Source: Clostridiales bacterium (GTDB lineage: Bacteria > Bacillota > Clostridia > Christensenellales > Aristaeellaceae). From it: 64,000 bases of DNA. Of the stretch, positions 1,354 through 54,658 are shown piece by piece. The notes under the pieces were generated by a model. It saw only the letters and a program-made list of their open reading frames with translations, did no database searches and had not been told where the DNA came from. Where the stretch lies: the NCBI GenBank assembly GCA_012523405.1, contig JAAYIN010000045.1, forward strand, positions 8,285 through 72,284, read 5' to 3'. The position numbers were made by a program, and so were the translations under genes. Each line of letters begins with the position of its first letter. Position 1 is the stretch's first letter.

Positions 1354-1493
1354 CATCTCCAAGCGCACCACGTTGATTAGGTCGATTGTGCTAATGCATC
1401 ATTCGTACCTTCCCACCATTCCATTGATCTTGAAATAATAATTTCTGGTACATCACCCAAAAGATGGACCCATACCATAAGGAGGATATGATC

Positions 1494-3209
1494 ATGAAGA
1501 CTAGAAGGCTTGTTGCAATAACACTGGCGGTTGCGGTGGCTCTATGCAATGTTTGCGTGTTTACATGCGGGCAGGGGAGCTTTATTACCAGTGCTTATGC
1601 TGCGGAAACACAAACTGTGGACGTTACAACACCAAGTCCGCAGGATACTGACCAAGTAGAATCAGATCAAGAAGGCGAACAAGATGGCGGTGAAACAGAC
1701 CCATCCAATCCGCCGTCCGATGATCAGGATTCCCAAGGCGAGTCTTCTGATAAGGATGCGAAGGTTACTTCAAATCCTGTTTCTGTTACCGGTGAGGTGA
1801 AGGAGACAGAGGAGCCCACATCTGAGCTAACTGAAGTAGCTGACACAGAGGAGCCCACATCTGAGCCAACTGAAGTAGCTGACACAGAGGAGCCCACATC
1901 TGAGCCAACTGAAGTAGCTGACACAGAGGAGCCCACATCTGAGCCGACACAAGAAGCAACAGACGCACCAGCTGCTGATGTTGGTTTCTTGTACGTTTCT
2001 GCAAGCGAAGCGATCTACACGAGCGCTAGCCGTACGACAATCCTCGGCACGATGAACGAGGGCGATGTAGTCTATGCTGAAGTAAGCGAAGCGTTTGAAA
2101 ACGGTACACTGTACAAGGCATATTTCGATACCACTAGAACGACTGATGCAGAAAATAGCGAGAGCGGATATTTTTACGCCTCATCAACCACTTGGCTTGT
2201 TGATGGTGATGAAGCTCTTGCAACGATGGTAAGCGTACGCACCGCTGGTGATGTGAGCATCCCATCCGTTGATTTTGTATATGCTGATGAAAAGCAAGAA
2301 GAAATTGATGATGATAAGATTTATGGTAAAGCAACCAGTAATGTGAAATTCAGACAGGAACCCACAATAGATTCTTCCGTCATCTGTGAACTGAACAAAG
2401 GAACAACCGTTGTCGTTATCGGCTCTGTTCAGAATGAAAAGGGCGAGACATGGTACTCCGTTCAGTCCGCTGACAAGACGGGTTACATTCGCGCTGATCT
2501 TGTAGCAGTTGATGGCGATGTACCTGCACTTGGCGGTGACGTGGATCCTGCAGATGAAACGGCAGAACCGACCGAACCTGCAGACGAAACCGAAGAGCCT
2601 GCCGAAGCAACGGAAACTCCGGAGGCCGAGCCTTCCGAAGAACCCGAAGCAACCGAGACTCCTGTGCCTGCTTATACCATCACCGTACTGGCCGGGGACG
2701 CAACAACGCTTGTATCCTACACGATGGAAGAAGGCACAATCCTAGATGCTGCATCGTTTGATGCTTTTATCATGCTCGACCCCGAGCAGACCTTCAAAGG
2801 CTGGTACCTATGCGATGCAAGCGGCAACGTAGAAGGCGCAGTCACATTTGGCGAAGCAGTCACGCAGTCCATCACCATGATCGCTGTGGCTGAGGAGCCG
2901 GTTGCGACGGAAGAGCCATTGCCGAGTGAAGAGCCTGTTGTAGAAGTAGTAGAGCGTAGCGTACATGTAGCTTTACATGCTGATACTGAGGAACTTACGA
3001 TTGGTAGTTCAGTCACACTTGCTGCTACATTGAATGGCTATGAGGAAGTACAATATGACTTCGTCTGGCAGACGGCGGCAATCGACGAACTTGGTAATAT
3101 CATTGGCGATTGGCAGAACACAGAGATCGATACGCTTGAGTTCAGCTACACACTAGCAGAAGACAACCTAATGGCTGCATGGAGAATGTGTGTAACCATT
3201 ACAGAATAA
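1494..3209 (+). CDS. Secreted acidic-repeat protein with SH3b-like domain, one Flg_new-like repeat and a C-terminal Ig-like domain
   Basis: AAGGAGG lies 8 nt upstream of the ATG at 1494. Signal peptide MKTRRLVAITLAVAVALCNV...AYA/AE. Tandem TEEPTSEPTEVAD repeats. SH3b-like block YGKATSNVKFRQEPTIDSSVICELNKGTTVVVIG...WYSVQ...GYIRADLV. F-KGWY motif. No sorting signal. Confidence 0.8.
   Translation: MKTRRLVAITLAVAVALCNVCVFTCGQGSFITSAYAAETQTVDVTTPSPQDTDQVESDQEGEQDGGETDPSNPPSDDQDSQGESSDKDAKVTSNPVSVTGEVKETEEPTSELTEVADTEEPTSEPTEVADTEEPTSEPTEVADTEEPTSEPTQEATDAPAADVGFLYVSASEAIYTSASRTTILGTMNEGDVVYAEVSEAFENGTLYKAYFDTTRTTDAENSESGYFYASSTTWLVDGDEALATMVSVRTAGDVSIPSVDFVYADEKQEEIDDDKIYGKATSNVKFRQEPTIDSSVICELNKGTTVVVIGSVQNEKGETWYSVQSADKTGYIRADLVAVDGDVPALGGDVDPADETAEPTEPADETEEPAEATETPEAEPSEEPEATETPVPAYTITVLAGDATTLVSYTMEEGTILDAASFDAFIMLDPEQTFKGWYLCDASGNVEGAVTFGEAVTQSITMIAVAEEPVATEEPLPSEEPVVEVVERSVHVALHADTEELTIGSSVTLAATLNGYEEVQYDFVWQTAAIDELGNIIGDWQNTEIDTLEFSYTLAEDNLMAAWRMCVTITE
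1803..1945 (+). repeat. In-frame 39-bp tandem repeat, 3.7 copies, encoding (D/E)TEEPTSE(P/L)TEVA
   Basis: Units at 1803-1841, 1842-1880, 1881-1919 and a partial unit at 1920-1945. Units 2 and 3 are identical and unit 1 differs at 2 nt. Confidence 0.95.
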
Positions 3210-3262
3210 TCCCAATTATATGAAATGGTAAACTCAAATTTCAAGCAGTGAGAGGAGAACCA

Positions 3263-6200
3263 ATGATGAGAAATATGTTGAGAAGGATTGCGGCACTGAT
3301 GTTGTGCGCAATAATGCTTCTTTCGATAGTCCCTCTTGGCGTTGCGGAGGATGGCTTGGTTGTGGATGCTCAAGTGGATGCGAAGACTACTGTAGAGGAA
3401 GTAGCTTCTTCGGTAACTACGACGGATGATGTAACAAATCAACTGAATATTGATAGCACAGATGACTCATCTAATGTAGATGTTAAATCTACTGATGTTG
3501 CCATTGGTACGATCAACTATTCACAGCCGATCGTCATTCTTGGCGCTCAAAATAGTAGCAATGCAATCGGAGAAGATACTACAGAGACTTATAAAATTAC
3601 ATTCGACCTGAATGGCGGAACGCAGGTGACTCCAAATGTACTAGAAGTCTTAATAGGTGAAAAAATTAAAGAATTGCCAATTCCTGTTTATTTAGATACT
3701 GCAGAAGGTGATCTGACTAAGCATAAAATGCAGTTCAGCGGTTGGTACTTAAATGCTGAGGGCACTGGCGATAAAGTTACTATTGATACTAATATTACTT
3801 CAAGTTTGACATTGTTTGCAAAGTGGGATGAAATAGATGTTACAAACTCCCATTATTTAAACTATATATATAAGAATGAAACTCTGGCAGAAGTAAAAAC
3901 AACATATGTTGTGTCAGAAGATCATATCTTAAAACCTTATTCGAACATGCCTGTTATAGCTGATATGACGTTTGTAGGATGGTCTAAGAGACAACAAAGT
4001 ACTCTATCATATACAGAATATGATAGATATAAATTTTCATTCAATACAACAATTTCACCAGAATCAATTAAAGTGGATGAGAAATACACACTTTCACTAT
4101 ATGCTTGGTATGCAAAAACTCGTACAGTACAATTTGTTCCAAATGGTGGATTGTCAATTCCGCCTGTTATTCTTTATGAGGGTGAACTCTTACAACAGCC
4201 AATTGTTGTAAGGGAAGGCTATACCTTAGAGGGATGGTATACATCTCAAGAGTTTGATCCGTTAACGAAGGTTACGTTCACCAATGGAGGACATGCGCAG
4301 ATAACTGCATCGTGCACTTTGTATGCCAAGTGGACAGCTCAGAAGGTAGCCGTGAAGCTAGTTTATATGTATGAAAATGCAAACGATGACGACTATTCAC
4401 CTGCGGCAAGAGATGCCACTACTGTATATGCACCTGCTGGTTCATATGTATCTATCAATAAGACTGACAGCATTAGTAACTTGAGCGCAAGTCATAGTGT
4501 TAAGTATGTTTCGGCTGATAGATTAACAAGTGGGGATGCAACGACTACGGCTAATAATACCATTGCGGCTACAATTCAAGATGTGAGTGAGTATCTATAT
4601 CAATACGATCATTTTTCTGAAGATCCTTCATTTGTGAAACCGGATGGTTCTACGATTATATTGATTTACTATAATCGTGCATTAATCACTTTGACTTTCA
4701 CATATCGAATAAGGAATGAAGATAAAAACGACGATGTTGCTACTGACGATGGAAATATTGTGCCTGATACTCAGCACCAAAGACCGGGAGGCACCAATAC
4801 GTCTGGTAGAGCAAAAATCGATGATGATAAATTGGCAGAACTAAGGTCATCTGGATATAATGCTGACTCTACAGCAAATAACACTGCCACTAATCCGATT
4901 CATTTTACATACAAATTTACCGCAAAATACGGTCAAGATATCAGTGCTGTATGGTTGAGGTCAGGTTGGGTTGAAAACAATTCTGATGAAATTACATATA
5001 AGTATGATAAGGGGGCTAGCGATCAAATTGGTACGTTCGCATACACATTTACTGGTTGGATGACCCCTGCAGGAGTAGCTCAAGTAGGTAATATGTATGT
5101 GCTCGATAAAACTTTATTTGTAACTGGAACTGAGAATAGTCCAGTGTATCATACGACAATTTTCGAGAACAAATTGGTTGCGTCAGGCCAGTTATACGCT
5201 GTTGCATCGCCTTCATCTGATATGCTTTGGATGATATATGCAGTTGAAGCTCTATCAGGAACTACAGGAGATTTTGAGACACAAAGACAAGATGGAACAG
5301 TACTTAAGTCTTATATAATTGATCATACACAAATTGTAAGGCAAACAGGTCACTTCGGCTCAAAGGGTATGGGTGATGGCTTTATAGCGTTACCTTACAA
5401 TGTACCGTTCGGAAGAAATACAAGATCGTTAACGGATTCGAAGGTTGGACCATTTACTAACGCAGGGACAGATGAATACGTAACCCCAACATCGAATAAT
5501 ACTACATTTGAGGGAAAATTTCTGAATGTATTTGCCGATGAACTTAATGGCCAGGAAGAATTTCCTAACACAGATACACAACAAATCCATTTATATAAAA
5601 GAAATAACTTCGTGTTAAAACTTGTTTCAAACGATGGAACGCAGCAAGAATATGTGAAGTCACTTCAATATCAAGCTCCACTTATGGAGGAAATTATTGC
5701 TTCTGAAAAAACGTTAAGTAAAGATGATTATACGTTTGTTGGGTGGTATACAAGTTCTGACTTTAACGAAGGCTCAAAATTTGAGGTTTCTGATAAATCA
5801 ATAATGCCAAATGCTAATATGACATTACATGGAAAATGGGAATCAACAAAGTTTCATGTTGTATATTATTATTCTACTCAGTCTGATCAAATGTTCAAAG
5901 AGCCATTTGGTGTGACAGAAAATGCTTATCTTACGGATTATGAGATGGACAAAGCATACAAGGATAACTTTGACTGTTGGGGCTGGTATCCGCCGAATTC
6001 CAATACACTAATACGTTTTGATTTTGCCATTCCTGTTGGTCGTCTGTTTACAGACGATAGCGACACATTAAAGCTCTATGGAATGTGGAAAGAGACTGAT
6101 GCTACGGTTACTTACGATCCCGGCAGTCAGGGCAAAAATGCATTGGTTGTTACAGATGAAACAAAGTACAAAACTGGAACGGGTGTATTTGAACTACCTG

Positions 6201-7087
6201 ACTATAAAACAAAATGGCCTGATGGCGTCCCTGTGGATGAAGATTATGTTTTTGTTGGTTGGAAAGCACCAAATGATAAAATATATCAACCAGGAGAAGA
6301 GCTTGTTGTTCTATCTTCGCAAATGACATTTGTTGCCCAGTGGGAAGAATGCAAAAATGCTTTTCAAATAATTTATGATGCGAATGGTGGAATGGGTAAT
6401 AACGATCCCACAATCAAGACCTATTCATTTGCTCTGACTGGTTCTGGTGAATATAAGGACACTCCGATCTGGGATAATGAACTTCAATTTAAACAATATT
6501 TTACTTTTGCAGGTTATGAGCTGATGGGTTGGTCTAAGCTGCCAGAAGGCCCTGTAGACTATAAAATAGGCGAGGGGACGATAAGGTTAGAGAAAGGAAA
6601 ACCAACAACCCTCTATGCTATCTGGAAACCCACGACAGTAGCTATTACGATTAAGAAGGTTGTTACTGGCGGCTTCGGGGATGTAGACAAGGCTTTTAGT
6701 TTTAACGCTACTGTTACACCTAAAAATGGAGTAAGTACTACAGTGGAGTTCACACTAAAGAATGGTGATGAGGGGCACTTGCTTAAAGATGTTCCAATCG
6801 GTTCAAAGTTAGTAATTGAAGAAACAGGCGCAGGTGACTACGAACTTTCGGTTACAGCTACTGGAATTGTCGAGGGGTCGCTAAGTGGTTTTGTGTACAC
6901 TGTTTCTGAAGTTAAAAAGAGCAAAGTTGATGATGACATTCTCATTACATTCACCAACAACAAAGAAGCAACCATCGACACTGGTGTTCTTCTTGACTCC
7001 TTGCCCTACATACTGATCCTTGGAGCAGCGGTAGCTGGCATTGTGATATTCCTACTTCGGAAGCGTCGCCGTGATGATGAAGAGTAA
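3263..7087 (+). CDS. Giant sortase-anchored surface adhesin (putative pilus tip protein) with Flg_new/Listeria-Bacteroides repeats and a C-terminal pilin-type isopeptide domain
   Basis: Signal peptide MMRNMLRRIAALMLCAIMLLSIVPLGVAEDG. At least 7 repeats carry the F/L-xGW(Y/S/K)...(L/F)(Y/H/V)(A/G)xW signature (for example YTLEGWYTSQEF...CTLYAKW). The C-terminal domain is VAITIKKVVTGGFGDVDKAFSFNATV...LVIEETGAGDYEL...ITFTNNKEA. It ends with TIDTG, a hydrophobic helix and RKRRRDDEE. Confidence 0.85.
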   Translation: MMRNMLRRIAALMLCAIMLLSIVPLGVAEDGLVVDAQVDAKTTVEEVASSVTTTDDVTNQLNIDSTDDSSNVDVKSTDVAIGTINYSQPIVILGAQNSSNAIGEDTTETYKITFDLNGGTQVTPNVLEVLIGEKIKELPIPVYLDTAEGDLTKHKMQFSGWYLNAEGTGDKVTIDTNITSSLTLFAKWDEIDVTNSHYLNYIYKNETLAEVKTTYVVSEDHILKPYSNMPVIADMTFVGWSKRQQSTLSYTEYDRYKFSFNTTISPESIKVDEKYTLSLYAWYAKTRTVQFVPNGGLSIPPVILYEGELLQQPIVVREGYTLEGWYTSQEFDPLTKVTFTNGGHAQITASCTLYAKWTAQKVAVKLVYMYENANDDDYSPAARDATTVYAPAGSYVSINKTDSISNLSASHSVKYVSADRLTSGDATTTANNTIAATIQDVSEYLYQYDHFSEDPSFVKPDGSTIILIYYNRALITLTFTYRIRNEDKNDDVATDDGNIVPDTQHQRPGGTNTSGRAKIDDDKLAELRSSGYNADSTANNTATNPIHFTYKFTAKYGQDISAVWLRSGWVENNSDEITYKYDKGASDQIGTFAYTFTGWMTPAGVAQVGNMYVLDKTLFVTGTENSPVYHTTIFENKLVASGQLYAVASPSSDMLWMIYAVEALSGTTGDFETQRQDGTVLKSYIIDHTQIVRQTGHFGSKGMGDGFIALPYNVPFGRNTRSLTDSKVGPFTNAGTDEYVTPTSNNTTFEGKFLNVFADELNGQEEFPNTDTQQIHLYKRNNFVLKLVSNDGTQQEYVKSLQYQAPLMEEIIASEKTLSKDDYTFVGWYTSSDFNEGSKFEVSDKSIMPNANMTLHGKWESTKFHVVYYYSTQSDQMFKEPFGVTENAYLTDYEMDKAYKDNFDCWGWYPPNSNTLIRFDFAIPVGRLFTDDSDTLKLYGMWKETDATVTYDPGSQGKNALVVTDETKYKTGTGVFELPDYKTKWPDGVPVDEDYVFVGWKAPNDKIYQPGEELVVLSSQMTFVAQWEECKNAFQIIYDANGGMGNNDPTIKTYSFALTGSGEYKDTPIWDNELQFKQYFTFAGYELMGWSKLPEGPVDYKIGEGTIRLEKGKPTTLYAIWKPTTVAITIKKVVTGGFGDVDKAFSFNATVTPKNGVSTTVEFTLKNGDEGHLLKDVPIGSKLVIEETGAGDYELSVTATGIVEGSLSGFVYTVSEVKKSKVDDDILITFTNNKEATIDTGVLLDSLPYILILGAAVAGIVIFLLRKRRRDDEE

Positions 7088-7098
7088 TGGTGATGTGA

Positions 7099-7425
7099 AT
7101 GGATAATAGGAAATCGACCAGAAGGAGAGCCTCGCAGCAGCCCGAGCCAATTGAACCCGCACCCATTGTCAATCGCGAGCAAAAGCGCATTGCACAGTGG
7201 CTCAACAAGGTCAAGTTTCGCAAGCAGCTCTTTGGAGGTGTCAGCGAGCGTGATGTGTGGAAGAAGATTACGGAGCTCAATGAACTATACAACGAGGCGA
7301 TCTTCGCAGAGCGAGTAAGGTATAACACTTTGCTGGATCAATGGCGCAGAGCCAATCAGGCGGGCGGCAACGCCCGCAAGCACTACAGCAATAACAATCG
7401 AGACAACGGAGGAGAAGGGGAGTGA
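7099..7425 (+). CDS. Small basic cytoplasmic protein with DivIVA-like N-terminal motif
   Basis: No signal peptide. The block WLNKVKFRKQLFGGVSERDVWKKITELNELYNEAI fits the DivIVA/GpsB N-domain pattern (F-x4-G(G/Y)-x4-V). Its stop overlaps the next start (GTGA at 7422-7425). Confidence 0.6.
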   Translation: MDNRKSTRRRASQQPEPIEPAPIVNREQKRIAQWLNKVKFRKQLFGGVSERDVWKKITELNELYNEAIFAERVRYNTLLDQWRRANQAGGNARKHYSNNNRDNGGEGE

Positions 7426-7973
7426 AGAAAAAGAAAAAGAAGCTTGGATCGATCGCGGATGTTATCGCAAAGCGTAAGAGCAAGCTCTTCACTCAAGAAG
7501 GTTACCGAAGCCTACTCATCCGGTTGATCGTGATTGTAGTAGCGGGATATCTACTCTTAACTCAGGTATTCCTAATCACTCAGGCAACTGGCATGGACAT
7601 GTTCCCCGCTGTCAAGGACGGCGACCTGATGATCGCCTTCAGACTGCAGCAGGATTATGTGACGGATGATGTGGTGGTGTATGTTGCCGATGGCAAACAG
7701 CGCTGCGGACGCATTGTCGCTACGGAATATGATTCTGTTGATCTCAGCGATGGCGGTTCTCTCAGGGTCAACGGCACGACACAAGGCGGAGAAATCCTGT
7801 ATCCAACCTATGCCAAAGAGGGGATTGAGTACCCCTACCGTACCCCAGCAGGATGTGTGTTCATCCTTGGTGATTATCGTACGCAAGCCACGGACAGCCG
7901 AGACTTCGACGCCATACCAATGGCAGATGTCCAAGGCAAGGTGATCACCATACTCCGAAGGCGTGGACTGTAA
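7422..7973 (+). CDS. SipA/LepA-like signal peptidase I homologue with the catalytic dyad replaced (putative pilin chaperone)
   Basis: GGAGGAG lies 6 nt upstream of the GTG start. N-terminal TM helix. S26 boxes are recognisable: box B TGMDMFPAV (Asp59 where Ser is expected), box C KDGDLMI, box D GRIVATEYDSV (Gly96 where Lys of KR(I/V)IGLPGD is expected), box E LGDYRTQATDSRDFDAIP. Confidence 0.85.
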   Translation: MKKKKKKLGSIADVIAKRKSKLFTQEGYRSLLIRLIVIVVAGYLLLTQVFLITQATGMDMFPAVKDGDLMIAFRLQQDYVTDDVVVYVADGKQRCGRIVATEYDSVDLSDGGSLRVNGTTQGGEILYPTYAKEGIEYPYRTPAGCVFILGDYRTQATDSRDFDAIPMADVQGKVITILRRRGL

Positions 7974-8151
7974 GGTTTATGCCAATGGATACCCGCTCAT
8001 CGCATGAGCATAGCCGCATGCTCTGGTGGGCAGAGCAAACCCCAAGCGCGGGACTTTCGTCCCGATTCGCTAAGAGGAACAACCACAGGTTATTTCCATG
8101 GAAAGCATCCGCTTTTCGTAGGCAATAAATCAAAAAATGGAGGCATGTCAC

Positions 8152-9135
8152 ATGAGCAAGAAAATTATGGCAATCCTAATGGTAATGATGATGGTGCTTG
8201 GAATGAGCACAATGGCAATGGCAGCGGACGAAGATCCGACAATTACTAAGACCTATGAAAGTCTAGGAGATGGTTCGAGCCCTGCAGAGACCTTTACTTT
8301 TGACGAGTGGAAACTTTTTGCAGAGGACTCTCCTCTATCAGTAGAAGAAGTTGAGGCACTTGGGATGCCTAGCATTGGCGAAATCACATTTATAGAGGGT
8401 GCAGCCGGTAATACAACAGATGGAGTTAAATCGGCAGGCATAAACCTTCCTACATATACGAGAGTTGGTATATATACATATACATTCAATGAGGCGGCTG
8501 GCGATACAGCAGGTGTTACTTATCATTCAACTCAAATGACATTAAAAGTAACAGTGACTCAGGGTGCAGATGGTTTGGTAACCACCTCTGCAATTTATGC
8601 AGATGGAGTTGGAGAAGGCATCACTAAGACTGACAACATAACCAATACCTATGCCTCTGGTAAATTAACTGTAAAAAAGACAGTTTCTGGTAACGCGGGC
8701 GATCTGAAAAAACCGTTCACATTCACAGTAGTGTTGACCGTACCAGATAAAAAAGTAAACCGTAGTAAAATTGGTGCTGTTTTAAAGTCACAAATCGAGG
8801 GGAATACATTATCGGATCCTTCGACTGATGGTAATACAATCACCTATACCTTTGCGTTGGCTAATGGTGACACAGTTGCTTTTACTAATATTCCAGCAGG
8901 TGTCACCTATAGTGTAACGGAAATTGCTGAAGACTACACATCCTCTTTTGCAGAAGGTGCAACGTCTGGCGAGATTACAGGTAACGCTGATGTTAATACA
9001 ACAATTAATAATAAAAAGGATACAACCCCCGACACCGGTATTTCCCTTGACAACATTCCTTATATCATTCTGCTAAGCGTAGCATTCCTAGGCTTGCTGT
9101 TCTTCGTAACCAAGCGTCGTGCGATCAACGAATAA
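8152..9135 (+). CDS. Backbone pilin, Spy0128/T-antigen (FctA) type, two isopeptide domains
   Basis: GGAGG lies 8 nt upstream of the ATG at 8152. Signal peptide ends AMA/ADE. Family blocks: VGIYTYTFNEAAGDTAGVTYHSTQMTLKVTV and LTVKKTVSGNAGDLKKPFTFTVVL. The C-terminus is TPDTG, then a hydrophobic helix and KRRAINE. Confidence 0.85.
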   Translation: MSKKIMAILMVMMMVLGMSTMAMAADEDPTITKTYESLGDGSSPAETFTFDEWKLFAEDSPLSVEEVEALGMPSIGEITFIEGAAGNTTDGVKSAGINLPTYTRVGIYTYTFNEAAGDTAGVTYHSTQMTLKVTVTQGADGLVTTSAIYADGVGEGITKTDNITNTYASGKLTVKKTVSGNAGDLKKPFTFTVVLTVPDKKVNRSKIGAVLKSQIEGNTLSDPSTDGNTITYTFALANGDTVAFTNIPAGVTYSVTEIAEDYTSSFAEGATSGEITGNADVNTTINNKKDTTPDTGISLDNIPYIILLSVAFLGLLFFVTKRRAINE

Positions 9136-9159
9136 TTATTCCAAGCAAATGACCTTTCC

Positions 9160-9235
9160 TTCCGATGGGAGGTACGTCTCCTTCGGAATGTAGACCATTG
9201 GTATTGCGTGCAGGGCGGTACGTCGCCTTGCACGC
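9160..9235 (+). promoter_or_regulatory. Two tandem stem-loops with identical GTACGT loops between the pilin and sortase genes
   Basis: H1 spans 9160-9188 (ttccga.gggag GTACGT ctcct.tcggaa). H2 spans 9206-9235 (12-bp stem gcgtgcagggcg/cgccttgcacgc with one G-U pair). Neither is followed by a U-run. Confidence 0.5.
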
Positions 9236-9304
9236 TTACCGCGGTTCGCAAATCATGCTTGGGAAAGGAAACCATGGCGATTTCACCATGGGAACAATAA
9301 ATAA

Positions 9305-10099
9305 ATGTCACGTCAATTATTACGGTTGCTCAATGGTTTGGTCAGTACGGTGATTGTGCTGGCACTGATCGTTTCAGGCGTATATGCAGGATACGCCCTA
9401 TGGGATAATGAACAGATTTATGCATCGGCTGAAAATGTTCAAGCGGATATGATTCAGCTGAAACCCAAAGTCGTGGAAACAGCAGATGCTGAGGAAGAGG
9501 CAGGGCCATCCTTTGCGGAGCTGCTCGCCATCAACCCCGATGTATGCGGATGGGTGACGATGGATAACACAAGAATTGATCACCCCGTTTTGCAGGGCGA
9601 ATCAAATTTCTCTTATATCAACACGGATGTTTATGGAGACTTTGCACTCGCTGGCAGCATCTTTTTAGACTACAGATGCAACAAAGCGTTTACAGATTAT
9701 TATTCACTTACCTATGGCCATCATATGGTCAATGGCGGTATGTACGGCGATTTGGAACTTTATAAAGACAAAACGTTCTTTGAAGAAAATCGCACAGGAA
9801 CATTGATTACCCCCGATCGGGTATACTTACTTGAGACATTTGCTTGCCTAGTGGTGATTTCATCGGAAGATAATATATTCTATCCACAAAAATGGCAGGA
9901 TGAAATAGACGGATTGATCGACTTTGCGAAGCTGAATGCTATGCACCTTCACAATGACACGATCGATGCGATGCTGGAAGAAGAACTGGAAACAGGAGTA
10001 ATACCACAGGTGCTGGCGCTCACAACCTGCTCCTCTGAGTTTACAGATGCAAGAACCATTATACTGGCTGTGATGAAAGAGTACACACCAGCGAAATAG
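9305..10099 (+). CDS. Class B sortase (pilin-polymerising type)
   Basis: N-terminal TM anchor. Class B blocks: TRIDHPVLQGESNFSYINTDVYGDFALAGSIFLDYRC...LTYGHHM (His), LALTTCSSEF (Cys), TDARTIIL (Arg). Confidence 0.9.
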   Translation: MSRQLLRLLNGLVSTVIVLALIVSGVYAGYALWDNEQIYASAENVQADMIQLKPKVVETADAEEEAGPSFAELLAINPDVCGWVTMDNTRIDHPVLQGESNFSYINTDVYGDFALAGSIFLDYRCNKAFTDYYSLTYGHHMVNGGMYGDLELYKDKTFFEENRTGTLITPDRVYLLETFACLVVISSEDNIFYPQKWQDEIDGLIDFAKLNAMHLHNDTIDAMLEEELETGVIPQVLALTTCSSEFTDARTIILAVMKEYTPAK

Positions 10100-10114
10100 G
10101 GAGGATATTTGATT

Positions 10115-10774
10115 ATGAAGAAGAGCTTTCGTAGCACGGTCATTATGCTGTGCGCAATGGTACTATGCCTGATGGTGTGCACCTCTGGAGCATTGGCTGC
10201 TCAAAAGACTGTTTCGATTGATGTCGAGATCAAGCTGGAGGGTACGCCGCTGCCATCTCCCGCTGAGACATATACCGTGTTGATGCGCGCAGATGACGCA
10301 TCCTTTCCCATGCCTTCAGGCAGTTCTACCGGCTATTACGAGCTGAAGATCACAGGGGCAGGCACTGCAAAGTTCCCAGTGACGACCTATGATAAAGTAG
10401 GTGTCTACACGTATACCATTCAGCAGGTCGTTGGCGCGAATGCCCAGTGCACCTATGATCAGCGCATCTATGATTTGACGGTGACGATTACCAACAAGCT
10501 TCCTAATTATGATGGCTTTGATGCCTATGTGGCTTTCAACGAAAAAAGCGCAACGGAAAAGCCTGATAAGGCAGAGTTCATCAACAAGTATCCTATTGTC
10601 ACGCCAACCCCCACCACACCACCCTCCTCAGGCGACGGTACCATTACCGCTACAGGCGTAACAGACTCCTGGCCTTATTACTTGGCTGGTGCAGCTGTGC
10701 TGGTGATCATTGCCTTCGTTATGATTATGATCATGCGCCGTAAAGAGGATGAGACCGATGGTGAAAAAAACTAA
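10115..10774 (+). CDS. Small base pilin (FctB-like) with proline-rich tail
   Basis: GGGAGGA lies 10 nt upstream of the ATG at 10115. Signal peptide ends ALA/AQK. One pilin domain (VGVYTYTIQQVVGANAQCTYDQRIYDLTVTITN...AEFINKY). Tail PIVTPTPTTPPSSG. ITATG is followed by a hydrophobic helix and RRKEDE. Confidence 0.75.
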   Translation: MKKSFRSTVIMLCAMVLCLMVCTSGALAAQKTVSIDVEIKLEGTPLPSPAETYTVLMRADDASFPMPSGSSTGYYELKITGAGTAKFPVTTYDKVGVYTYTIQQVVGANAQCTYDQRIYDLTVTITNKLPNYDGFDAYVAFNEKSATEKPDKAEFINKYPIVTPTPTTPPSSGDGTITATGVTDSWPYYLAGAAVLVIIAFVMIMIMRRKEDETDGEKN

Positions 10775-11777
10775 GTCGGTTTCTCGCAAGCGTAGAGTGA
10801 GAAGAAGCAAGCGCATTGCGATGTGTGTGCTGATTCTGGCGCTTGTTATTGCTGCGGTTTTGGGCGTTCTCGCTTATGCTGAGATCAATGACCGAAAAGC
10901 TGGTGTGGACTATTACGACTCACTCGCATCTGCGAATCAAACGGATGCAAACACTGCGTCGCAATCTGTCGATCAAGCAAGCAATAGCCAAGGCAGTGCA
11001 TCAGGCGATCAGTCATCGCAGTCTAGTATAGATGACTATTTACAGTCGTTTACTGACGATGATGACGAGTATGCAACATCAGCTCAGCAACAGCCGTCTG
11101 CCGCAGACCAGTCTGGGACAGACCAATCTGGCACAGACCAGTCTGCTCCAGAAGCAACCGCTGCAAATGCCATAGCCTCAACGGCTGAGCCAGAGAAGAA
11201 AGTCGTCGTTCAATCGGAAATCGACTTTGAAACGCTCTGGAAAACCTGTCCTGATGTGGTTGGCTGGATTCGCTGCGAGGGCACTGTGATTGACTATCCC
11301 ATCGTTCAGGGAACGGATAACGACTACTACTTAGCCCATTTACCAGATGGCACTGCAAACAGAGCGGGCTCCATTATGATGGATGTCTCCTGCGACCCCG
11401 CATTCACCAATGACGTGACAATTTTGCACGGTCATAACATGAAGAGCGGTAAGATGTTTGGCGATCTATTTCGGTTCGGCGTAGAGGAGTACTATCTGAG
11501 GTTTCCGATATTGAGACTGTATACGCCAAGCGGTGATTACGATGTCGAGATATTTGCAGGTTGTACAGTCAACGGCGCAACATTTGGCTATCCGACGGTG
11601 TTTGCATCGGAGGAAGAGTACATTGCCTTTGTAGAGAAAATCGTGAAGGCAACTGCTTACGAAACGAATGTTGAGGTCAATTATCCGGATGAGATATTGC
11701 TGTTGTCAACATGCGCATATTCCTATCAGAATCAAAGATTCATCCTCGCGGGAAAGATCATGTTTCCAGAGGATTGA
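10758..11777 (+). CDS. Second class B sortase with a long low-complexity linker
   Basis: TM anchor CVLILALVIAAVLGVLAY, then about 100 aa rich in S/Q/D including DQSGTDQSGTDQS. Class B blocks follow: TVIDYPIVQGTDNDYYLAH...ILHGHNM, LLLSTCAYS, NQRFILAG. It overlaps the end of the base-pilin gene. Confidence 0.9.
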   Translation: MVKKTKSVSRKRRVRRSKRIAMCVLILALVIAAVLGVLAYAEINDRKAGVDYYDSLASANQTDANTASQSVDQASNSQGSASGDQSSQSSIDDYLQSFTDDDDEYATSAQQQPSAADQSGTDQSGTDQSAPEATAANAIASTAEPEKKVVVQSEIDFETLWKTCPDVVGWIRCEGTVIDYPIVQGTDNDYYLAHLPDGTANRAGSIMMDVSCDPAFTNDVTILHGHNMKSGKMFGDLFRFGVEEYYLRFPILRLYTPSGDYDVEIFAGCTVNGATFGYPTVFASEEEYIAFVEKIVKATAYETNVEVNYPDEILLLSTCAYSYQNQRFILAGKIMFPED

Positions 11778-11782
11778 AATGA

Positions 11783-11818
11783 AAACCATCCCTGATTGAA
11801 GTCAGGGATGGTTTTTTC
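11783..11818 (+). terminator. Rho-independent terminator closing the pilus operon
   Basis: 13-bp stem aaaccatccctga/tcagggatggttt followed by TTTTT. Confidence 0.85.
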
Positions 11819-54581: not shown

Positions 54582-54658
54582 TGGTACACCATCAGGGATT
54601 CGAACCCTGGACACCCTGATTAAGAGTCAGGTGCTCTAGCCAACTGAGCTAATGGTGC
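54582..54658 (-). tRNA. tRNA-Lys (anticodon CUU), CCA encoded
   Basis: The reverse complement is GCACCAT TA GCTC AGTTGGCTA GAGC A CCTGA CTCTTAA TCAGG GTGTC CAGGG TTCGAAT CCCTG ATGGTGT A CCA. It folds as a full cloverleaf with a GTTCGAAT T-loop, 77 nt. Confidence 0.95.

Follow-up and report, generated by a model that had tools for sequence, protein, structure and literature searches.

A putative SipA/class-B-sortase (T-antigen) type pilus locus in an uncultured Clostridiales bacterium and its conservation in a large clostridial family

We analysed a stretch of 64,000 nucleotides (nt) from contig JAAYIN010000045.1 of an uncultured Clostridiales bacterium (assembly GCA_012523405.1), hereafter the window, and found in it a set of seven genes (3263-11777) that very probably specifies, on its own, a heterotrimeric pilus assembled by sortases and belonging to the SipA/class-B-sortase (T-antigen) type. 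This reading is strongly supported because every component is homologous to a part of known pili and the synteny of the locus is conserved. Eight intact and consecutive open reading frames (ORFs) were present on the + strand, spanning 1464-11777. They are numbered below as genes 1 to 8, and where two starts are given they are separated by a slash, as are the corresponding lengths in amino acids (aa).

1464/1494-3209, + strand: gene 1, secreted SH3b/acidic-repeat protein, 571 aa
3248/3263-7087, + strand: gene 2, candidate tip adhesin, 1279/1274 aa
7099-7425, + strand: gene 3, small protein, 108 aa
7422-7973, + strand: gene 4, SipA/LepA-like protein, 183 aa
8137/8152-9135, + strand: gene 5, backbone (shaft) pilin, 332/327 aa
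9305-10099, + strand: gene 6, class B sortase 1, 264 aa
10109/10115-10774, + strand: gene 7, base (anchor) pilin, 221/219 aa
10749-11777, + strand: gene 8, class B sortase 2, 342 aa

When the product of gene 5 was compared with the PDB by phmmer, it matched the T-antigens T18.1 (6e-26) and T3.2 (9e-18), Spy0128 (5e-12) and PitB (7f7y, 4.5e-6). It contained the Pfam domains FctA (8.9e-10) and DUF7601 (6.4e-19), giving the two-domain layout of Spy0128 and the T-antigens. A preliminary description of this DNA, made from the letters alone, had named beforehand a failure of the 327-aa pilin to resemble Spy0128 as an outcome speaking against a pilus. The resemblance was found, and the block singled out there, LTVKKTVSGNAGDLKKPFTFTVVL, aligned with Spy0128 LTVKKKVSGTGGDRSKDFNFGLTL. 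Mapping through the Spy0128 alignment placed two predicted isopeptide triads in gene 5, K33/E114/N165 and K176/E257/N287, the counterparts of K36/E117/N168 and K179/E258/N303 in Spy0128 (numbering of Kang et al. 2007), and each of the six residues was 96-100% conserved among 71 homologous pilins from related loci. Gene 5 is thus predicted to supply Lys-Asn isopeptide domains of the Spy0128 type. The acceptor lysine of Spy0128 is K161; the candidate pilin lysine of gene 5, K159, lies one residue off the K161 column, and a lysine was present in the loop preceding N165 in 71/71 homologous pilins. No YPKN pilin motif was found in the gene 5 sequence, which ended in the sorting signal TPDTGISLDNIPY.

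Profile searches identified the product of gene 4 as a member of Peptidase_S26 (5e-11) and TIGR02227 (1e-20), as anticipated by the preliminary description, which had called it a signal-peptidase-I homologue resembling SipA. Its best PDB matches were S. pyogenes SipA (4n31, 1.9e-25) and LepA (4k8w, 2.8e-25), and the true signal peptidases in the PDB matched it at 1e-4 or worse. The position of the catalytic Ser was occupied by D59 (GMDMFPA) and that of the catalytic Lys by G96 (CGRIVA); among 24 SipA-like relatives the former was D, G or E and the Gly at the latter was invariant. Because Asp and Gly occupy the dyad positions, the product of gene 4, judging from its sequence, is a homologue of signal peptidase I that is anchored in the membrane and cannot act as a Ser/Lys peptidase. 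In the SipA of S. pyogenes, Asp48 and Gly85 replace the dyad, and the protein is essential for polymerisation and is not a peptidase (PMC4049620). Gene 4 is presumed to encode a pilus-polymerisation chaperone of this kind. The cytoplasmic N-terminal tail of the SipA-like protein was conserved in its relatives.

Both sortases were assigned to class B with the NCBIfam model TIGR03064, whose curated NCBI cut-off is 153.75 bits: sortase 1 scored 158.3 bits and sortase 2 scored 162.7 bits. The class of the two enzymes had also been named beforehand as a point on which the pilus proposal could fall, and both proved to be of class B as described. Sortase 1 kept its catalytic His (GHHM), Cys (LTTC) and Arg, aligned with those of Spy0129, and its best PDB matches were Spy0129 (3psq, 1.9e-33, 119 bits) and 4y4q (5.6e-31, 111 bits), probably pneumococcal SrtG1; the anchoring SrtBs matched it at 1e-21 or worse, with about 80 bits or less. 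Sortase 2 matched the SrtB of B. anthracis (2oqw, 6.8e-34, 120 bits) and that of L. monocytogenes (5jcv, 1.5e-29, 106 bits), and Spy0129 at 5.9e-14 (55 bits). Its His, Cys and Arg were kept, aligned with those of B. anthracis SrtB. On these sequence affinities, sortase 1 is presumed to be the pilin polymerase and sortase 2 the anchoring sortase for the base pilin. Sortase 2 was built of an N-terminal transmembrane (TM) segment, a linker of ~100 aa and the catalytic domain. We also observed that this linker (residues about 45-150) was of low complexity and rich in Ser, Gln and Asp, with a QSGTD repeat, and that the second class B sortases of the relatives spanned 262-358 aa, with widely varying linker lengths; the linker could set the distance from the membrane at which the enzyme acts.

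The sorting signals of the three pilins followed the same division. Across loci, tip adhesins and backbone pilins ended in a common signal, [IPV]-D-[TML]-G-[VI]-x-[LM]-D-x-[LA]-P-Y, behind which stood a TM segment and a basic tail (counted in 52 and 58 distinct tails, respectively); at this locus it read IDTGVLLDSLPY in the tip and PDTGISLDNIPY in the backbone. In place of this signal, the base pilins of the different loci carried ITATG, [ST]P[KQ]TGD or LIQTGQ. The signal cores here were therefore IDTG (tip), PDTG (backbone) and ITATG (base), unlike the QVPTG/EVPTG class, in agreement with the proposal that the sorting signals differ from those of streptococci. No NCBIfam sortase-signal model matched the pilus proteins of this locus, and the TIGR03063 signal domain had no match in 10109-10774 at E <= 0.01. 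The base signal and the gene that follows it were combined in the related loci, designated here by L numbers, in the following ways.

Base signal ITATGV.D.W.YY: next gene a long-linker class B sortase (306-358 aa); the window, L012 and L002
Base signal TP[KQ]TGDE: next gene a class B sortase of 262-270 aa; L015-L017 and L024
Base signal LIQTGQ.NWP: next gene a 198-213-aa sortase, not of class B; L006, L022, L035, L069 and others
Base signal of other PKTGD/PQTGD type: no second sortase in the next position; L031 and L045

The non-class-B second sortases (L022 12876-13472, L069 6990-7631, L035 12247-12843 and L006 13389-14012), of 198-213 aa and belonging to the main human-gut lineage, gave weak class C/D/E-like NCBIfam matches below the cut-offs. 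The tip/backbone signal thus stayed constant and paired with sortase 1, and the base signal co-varied with the type of sortase 2. This is what is expected of a polymerase plus a dedicated anchoring enzyme, and the co-variation suggests separate polymerising and anchoring sortases, a split that parallels SrtC plus SrtA in S. pyogenes.

Gene 7 had a single FctA-type immunoglobulin-like (Ig) domain (Pfam FctA, 1.4e-9) and weak sequence matches in the PDB to FctB3 (8k6t, 1.2e-4) and FctB (3klq, 1.7e-4). When its AlphaFold2 (AF2) model was searched with Foldseek, the top four matches were all FctB (2e-5 to 7e-5, TM-score to the target 0.63-0.69), with T-antigens next, which bears out the call of the 219-aa protein as a small FctB-type pilin with a proline tail. 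The model was built from five sequences, with a predicted local distance difference test (pLDDT) value of 60, and was shallow because the word-indexed search returned only 5 homologues. A Gln was found at the position of the isopeptide Glu (YTIQQ, compared with YRVYQ in FctB), and FctB itself has Q67 and no isopeptide bond (PMC7900414). The proline-rich tail TPTPTTPP could be read in the translation, and the sorting signal, ITATGVTDSWPYY, was distinct from those of tip and backbone.

The candidate tip adhesin had a signal peptide and Flg_new (Listeria-Bacteroides) repeats (Pfam Flg_new, 9.4e-32), a domain that the preliminary description had proposed to search for. Its C-terminus formed a pilin-like domain (DUF5979, 6.5e-7; DUF7601, 1.1e-6) 27% identical to the C-domain of the backbone pilin, followed by the sorting signal ATIDTGVLLDSLPY, a TM segment and RKRRR. 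A Cpa-like thioester adhesin was considered and rejected, as Pfam gave no thioester domain at E <= 0.01 and the sequence contained no TQxA motif. The tip therefore differs from that of the S. pyogenes locus, as had been proposed. In the relatives L007 (7191-9581) and L008 (491-2881) the adhesin head consisted of VWA and a GBS104-like Ig domain, as in the RrgA/GBS104 adhesins, and these proteins kept the C-terminal pilin domain and the sorting signal of this family. Because such different heads stand on the same C-terminal domain and signal, adhesin heads are, from the sequences compared, swapped on a constant assembly module. In one sub-lineage, L090 (6389-8166) and L091 (157-1934), the adhesin was preceded by a further pair of genes (325 and 230 aa) without any Pfam match.

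In order to examine synteny, we used a set of 86 related loci from which copies of this organism were left out. An adhesin lay upstream in 64/65 loci with room for it, the small protein adjoined SipA in 71/77, and the backbone pilin was present in 70/70, sortase 1 in 57/58 and the base pilin in 48/49. The order variable adhesin, small protein, SipA, backbone, SrtB and base pilin was almost invariant; the core order expected by the preliminary description (adhesin, SipA, backbone, SrtB, base pilin) thus recurs across the 86 loci. The same seven genes were found in L002, from a goat-rectum metagenome-assembled genome (MAG), at about 50% identity. At least 1,497 entries of the protein collection, almost all of them metagenomic, were homologous to the SipA-like protein, and at least 575 metagenome stretches, many labelled human gut, encoded a SipA-like relative. 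As to the organism itself, 100% identical hypothetical proteins were found for the 108-aa and 219-aa products in a 'Clostridiales bacterium' MAG (NLO84846.1; GX096_05390 and GX096_05410), and a near-identical contig was present in a Logan assembly (L004). Full-text literature searches gave no description of this clostridial family, its small protein or its sorting signal. A 'conserved pilin of gut clade TANB77' (PMC11680825) that came up was set aside as a Tad/type IV pilus unrelated to this locus.

Two genes were extra relative to the streptococcal locus, the second class B sortase and the conserved 108-aa gene between adhesin and SipA; the preliminary description had likewise spoken of two extra genes. 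Because gene 3 had neither a signal peptide nor a TM segment, its product is presumably cytoplasmic. Its stop codon overlapped the start of the SipA-like gene. No Pfam or NCBIfam match was obtained in the domain search, and the word-indexed search gave 57 homologues and a profile search 669 representative clusters at E <= 1e-3. The family core was REQKRIxxWLxKVRFRKxLFGGVSERDVWKKIxELNxMYNxALxAERARYDALL, in which W34, F40, G46-G47 and D52-V53-W54 were invariant or nearly so. In the AF2 model (pLDDT 68), a helix at 24-37 and a helix at 50-89 were joined by a loop. The most divergent member found (P0177), likewise a neighbour of SipA, sat between a DUF7601 protein and the next gene. Longer members of the family were checked for clues from fused domains and yielded nothing useful; one CoA_trans match in such a member was discarded as probably a mis-called ORF.

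This protein had been called DivIVA-like, and a membrane-curvature or scaffold protein of that kind might position pilus assembly. Nine of its residues, FGGVSERDV, resemble FRGYDEDEV of DivIVA at the junction of loop and long helix, and the predicted topology of short helix, loop and long helix would suit such a role. We consider it improbable, however, as four members of the family had no match to DivIVA in Pfam at E <= 10, hhalign against the DivIVA and GpsB of B. subtilis gave a probability of 0.2%, and a Foldseek search of the AF2 model against the PDB returned no match; the label does not hold. The sole PDB profile match of the protein was to a helix-turn-helix (HTH) domain of NtrC type, non-significant at E 0.37, so that a reading as an HTH regulator is as weak as the DivIVA motif. 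From where its gene lies, and from the translational coupling with SipA, the 108-aa protein may work with SipA or regulate the operon; as a speculation, it could be a partner of the conserved cytoplasmic tail of SipA or an operon regulator.

Comparison with characterised pili placed the locus closest in plan to the FCT (fibronectin-binding, collagen-binding and T-antigen) region of S. pyogenes in its FCT-2/3/4 forms (cpa-sipA/lepA-fctA/tee-srtC(Spy0129)-fctB). The core gene order is shared, and the claim that it is that of the FCT-2/3 locus is upheld by the homology of each part: adhesin, SipA, backbone, SrtB and base pilin. Further likenesses are a SipA homologue with the dyad changed to Asp/Gly, a two-domain backbone with two Lys-Asn triads, a pilin lysine in a loop and not in a YPKN motif, a class B polymerising sortase, and an FctB-like base pilin with a proline-rich tail and no isopeptide Glu. 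In contrast to the FCT region, the tip here carries Flg_new repeats and no detected thioester domain, and tip and backbone end in xDTG...LDxxPY, where the signals of that region are EVPTG, QVPTG or VPPTG. The base pilin has ITATG, whereas an LPXTG signal for SrtA is found there, and the operon encodes a second class B sortase as well as a conserved 74-108-aa cytoplasmic protein between adhesin and SipA. RofA/Nra regulators and fibronectin-binding genes are missing here, and the host is an uncultured Clostridiales bacterium. Lacking both a thioester Cpa and a base signal of SrtA type, and with signals that differ, the locus is, by its sequence, not an FCT region in the strict sense.

The statement of the preliminary description that this type of pilus has been functionally characterised only in streptococci is contradicted by the necrotic-enteritis pilus of C. 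perfringens VR-10B (cnaA, fimA, fimB, with a signal-peptidase gene and a sortase gene of class B), which was shown by a ladder, immunogold transmission electron microscopy and pilin mutants (PMC8088525). That locus was reported to be syntenic with streptococcal loci, and its base pilin was argued to be a sortase B substrate (PMC8088525). Our comparison with VR-10B rests on the description in that paper and not on sequences. Like the present locus, VR-10B belongs to a member of the Clostridia, has three pilins, a signal-peptidase gene and a sortase of class B in one transcript, and has a second SrtB gene adjacent. It differs in comprising seven ORFs that include a two-component system, with no small protein described, in having the second SrtB outside the operon and in the opposite orientation, in a collagen-binding Cna adhesin at the tip, and in a FimB carrying the TIGR03063 signal domain, which was undetected here. 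Pilus islet 2 (PI-2) of S. pneumoniae (pitA-sipA-pitB-srtG1-srtG2) shares SipA, two sortase genes and a homologous backbone, PitB, and its polymerisation requires SipA and one sortase (PMC10548224). Unlike the present locus, PI-2 lacks an FctB-like base pilin placed between its sortases, its SrtG2 and PitA are dispensable, its signal is VTPTG, and it has no small cytoplasmic protein. From the sequence comparisons it is well supported that the core of the clostridial locus is homologous to, and would work like, the FCT-2/3/4 pili of S. pyogenes and pneumococcal PI-2.

Taken together, these data allow an assembly pathway to be proposed. Sec would export the three pilins, which would stay in the membrane through the C-terminal TM segment and basic tail observed in their sequences. 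The SipA-like protein would be needed for polymerisation as a chaperone or scaffold without catalytic activity, by analogy with SipA of S. pyogenes and S. pneumoniae. Sortase 1 would cut the xDTG signal of adhesin and backbone after Thr and join this residue to K159, the loop lysine of the backbone subunit that comes next, as conserved residues and the common signal of the two pilins indicate. Each backbone subunit would be locked by spontaneous K33-N165 and K176-N287 isopeptide bonds, the triads being conserved and bond formation predicted from them. Incorporation of the FctB-like base pilin would stop fibre growth, after which sortase 2 may cut the base-pilin ITATG and pass the fibre to peptidoglycan, as the co-variation of base signal and second sortase points to. 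The 108-aa protein, translationally coupled to SipA, would be a conserved accessory, either a partner of the SipA tail or a regulator, the most speculative part of the scheme.

Several points weigh against this interpretation. Polymer formation, the linkage sites and the requirement for SipA are all inferred for this locus and its close relatives. The sorting signals are unlike those of every characterised class B pilus substrate (EVPTG, QVPTG, VTPTG), so that sortase specificity is here a prediction. With a pLDDT of 60 and five sequences behind it, the model of the base pilin is of modest quality, and the related loci are not independent samples, most of them coming from one human-gut lineage. 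There may be a housekeeping sortase elsewhere in the genome, beyond the view of the 64-kb window, and L031 and L045 lack any second sortase. Finally, the second sortase of S. pneumoniae PI-2, SrtG2, is dispensable (PMC10548224), and a second sortase therefore need not be the anchoring enzyme.

Two other explanations of the locus were weighed. The class B sortases of Clostridia are best known as anchoring enzymes, and those of this locus might attach the adhesin and the two Ig-domain proteins to the wall individually, with no fibre being made. In C. difficile, the SrtB substrates are (S/P)PxTG proteins anchored to the wall, and the base-pilin signals [ST]P[KQ]TGD of some relatives resemble this [SP]PxTG motif; moreover, the polymer at this locus is a predicted one. 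Such an arrangement is nevertheless very improbable, considering that the backbone is fully homologous to the polymerising T-antigens and has a loop lysine at the K161 equivalent in 71/71 relatives, that SipA-type proteins are reported from pilus loci only (PMC4049620), and that a three-pilin design with an FctB-like terminator pilin would be purposeless without polymerisation. Less easily set aside, though still rather unlikely, is the explanation that a pilus is made and sortase 2 is redundant or dispensable like SrtG2, anchoring being performed by sortase 1 or by a housekeeping sortase elsewhere. PI-2 pili need neither PitA nor SrtG2 (PMC10548224), the relatives L031 and L045 do without a second sortase, and for C. 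perfringens it is not settled which part SrtB1, SrtB2 and SrtA each play (PMC8088525). Yet the base signal differs from the tip/backbone signal and shifts with the type of second sortase across lineages, and sortase 2 keeps all of its catalytic residues and has anchoring SrtBs as its nearest relatives.

Beyond the self-contained heterotrimeric pilus that we favour, one may tentatively ask whether the clostridial loci represent a distinct, self-sufficient sub-type of SipA/class-B pili, defined by an obligatory small cytoplasmic protein, a new xDTG/LDxxPY signal class and an exchangeable anchoring sortase matched to the base signal. This is possible from the sequences, and we do not regard it as the probable outcome. 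In such a sub-type the small protein would act from the cytoplasmic side, for example via the N-terminal tail of SipA. To our knowledge, no cytoplasmic partner is known for sortase-assembled pili.

Gene 1, the first of the eight ORFs, has a different standing from the other seven. Its product had a signal peptide and an SH3b domain (Pfam SH3_3, 9.6e-10) and no sorting signal, and its acidic 13-aa repeats, four of them in tandem (EEPTSEPTEVADT), were readable in the translation, so that its description as a secreted SH3b/acidic-repeat protein was accurate. A C-terminal segment of the protein resembled a Flg_new-type repeat (FKGWYL...). Genes 1 and 2 are 38-53 nt apart, and gene 1 is probably co-transcribed with the pilus genes. 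A homologue upstream of the adhesin was found in only 2 of the 86 related loci (L012 and L028), and gene 1 was for this reason not counted in the pilus module, its membership in the pilus unit being doubtful; the secreted product may bind to the wall and be expressed together with the pilus. Of the complete eight-gene pilus operon proposed earlier, the seven genes at 3263-11777 therefore remain and the SH3b gene is a doubtful member.

The remaining features of the locus and its upstream flank were as follows.

11781-11816, + strand: intrinsic terminator, a perfect 16-bp hairpin followed by a U-run, directly 3' of the gene 8 stop
9136-9304, + strand: structured intergenic RNA, minimum free energy -71.8 kcal/mol, z -5.8
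205-996, - strand: LytTR-type response regulator (Response_reg and LytTR), divergent, upstream of the pilus locus

Genes 3 and 4 overlapped at 7422-7425 and genes 7 and 8 at 10749-10774, and the widest intergenic gaps were 178 nt (7974-8151) and 169 nt (9136-9304). The terminator had a folding energy of -24.3 kcal/mol (z -6.0 against shuffles) and was absent from the output of a simple consensus scan. The picture of eight co-directional genes with gaps of about 170 nt and a strong terminator was thus confirmed. The gap at 9136-9304, behind the backbone pilin gene, held a 12-bp GC hairpin (about 9206-9236) without a U-tract, and in 52 related loci the corresponding gap (53-640 nt) had a median z of about -5, calculated with mononucleotide shuffles only. 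This RNA structure may stabilise the mRNA or serve as an attenuator, and so raise the output of pilin over that of sortase. Upstream of the backbone pilin gene, the 178-nt gap showed moderate structure (z -2.7), and an internal promoter or a processing site could lie within it.

The G+C content was 44.5% in the pilus locus, lowest in the adhesin gene (39%), and 49.3% in the remaining window (12000-64000). Mobile-element genes stood beside some related loci, an integrase in L006 (6018-7337) and a resolvase in L090 (5495-6085). The low G+C content and these flanking genes hint that the pilus module has moved horizontally. A plasmid location was considered and dropped, a PLSDB search having given ordinary lepB genes only and no SipA-type match. 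The remaining window was ordinary chromosome, with RecJ, FtsH, PBP1, ABC transporters and GH2 glycosidases. Upstream of the operon Rfam revealed neither a riboswitch nor any other known RNA, and its sole match in the window was a tRNA (54585-54658, - strand). The LytTR regulator was rejected as a conserved partner, with no homologue in the flanks of related loci, and no cognate kinase was visible before the window edge; because of these two findings it is probably not dedicated to the pilus operon.

Apart from one locus of C. perfringens, almost all work on pili that combine SipA with a sortase of class B has concerned streptococcal pathogens. The locus described here is one of a very large family found in uncultured Clostridia of guts and digesters, in which the streptococcal core is retained whole and is joined by a conserved small cytoplasmic protein and by a second sortase encoded in the operon. 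Its assembly principle is not new; it is the known SipA/class-B type, newly seen in a large clostridial family. The sequence variation of the family offers a handle on SipA function and on the specificity of class B sortases, through the contrast of xDTG...LDxxPY with the base-pilin signals; the 108-aa protein is a candidate for a new factor in assembly or regulation, and new Lys-Asn isopeptide domains from these pilins would be of the kind used in protein engineering. For the bacteria themselves, the pilus is likely to be an adhesion organelle of abundant commensals, with swappable tips (Flg_new here, VWA/GBS104-like elsewhere).

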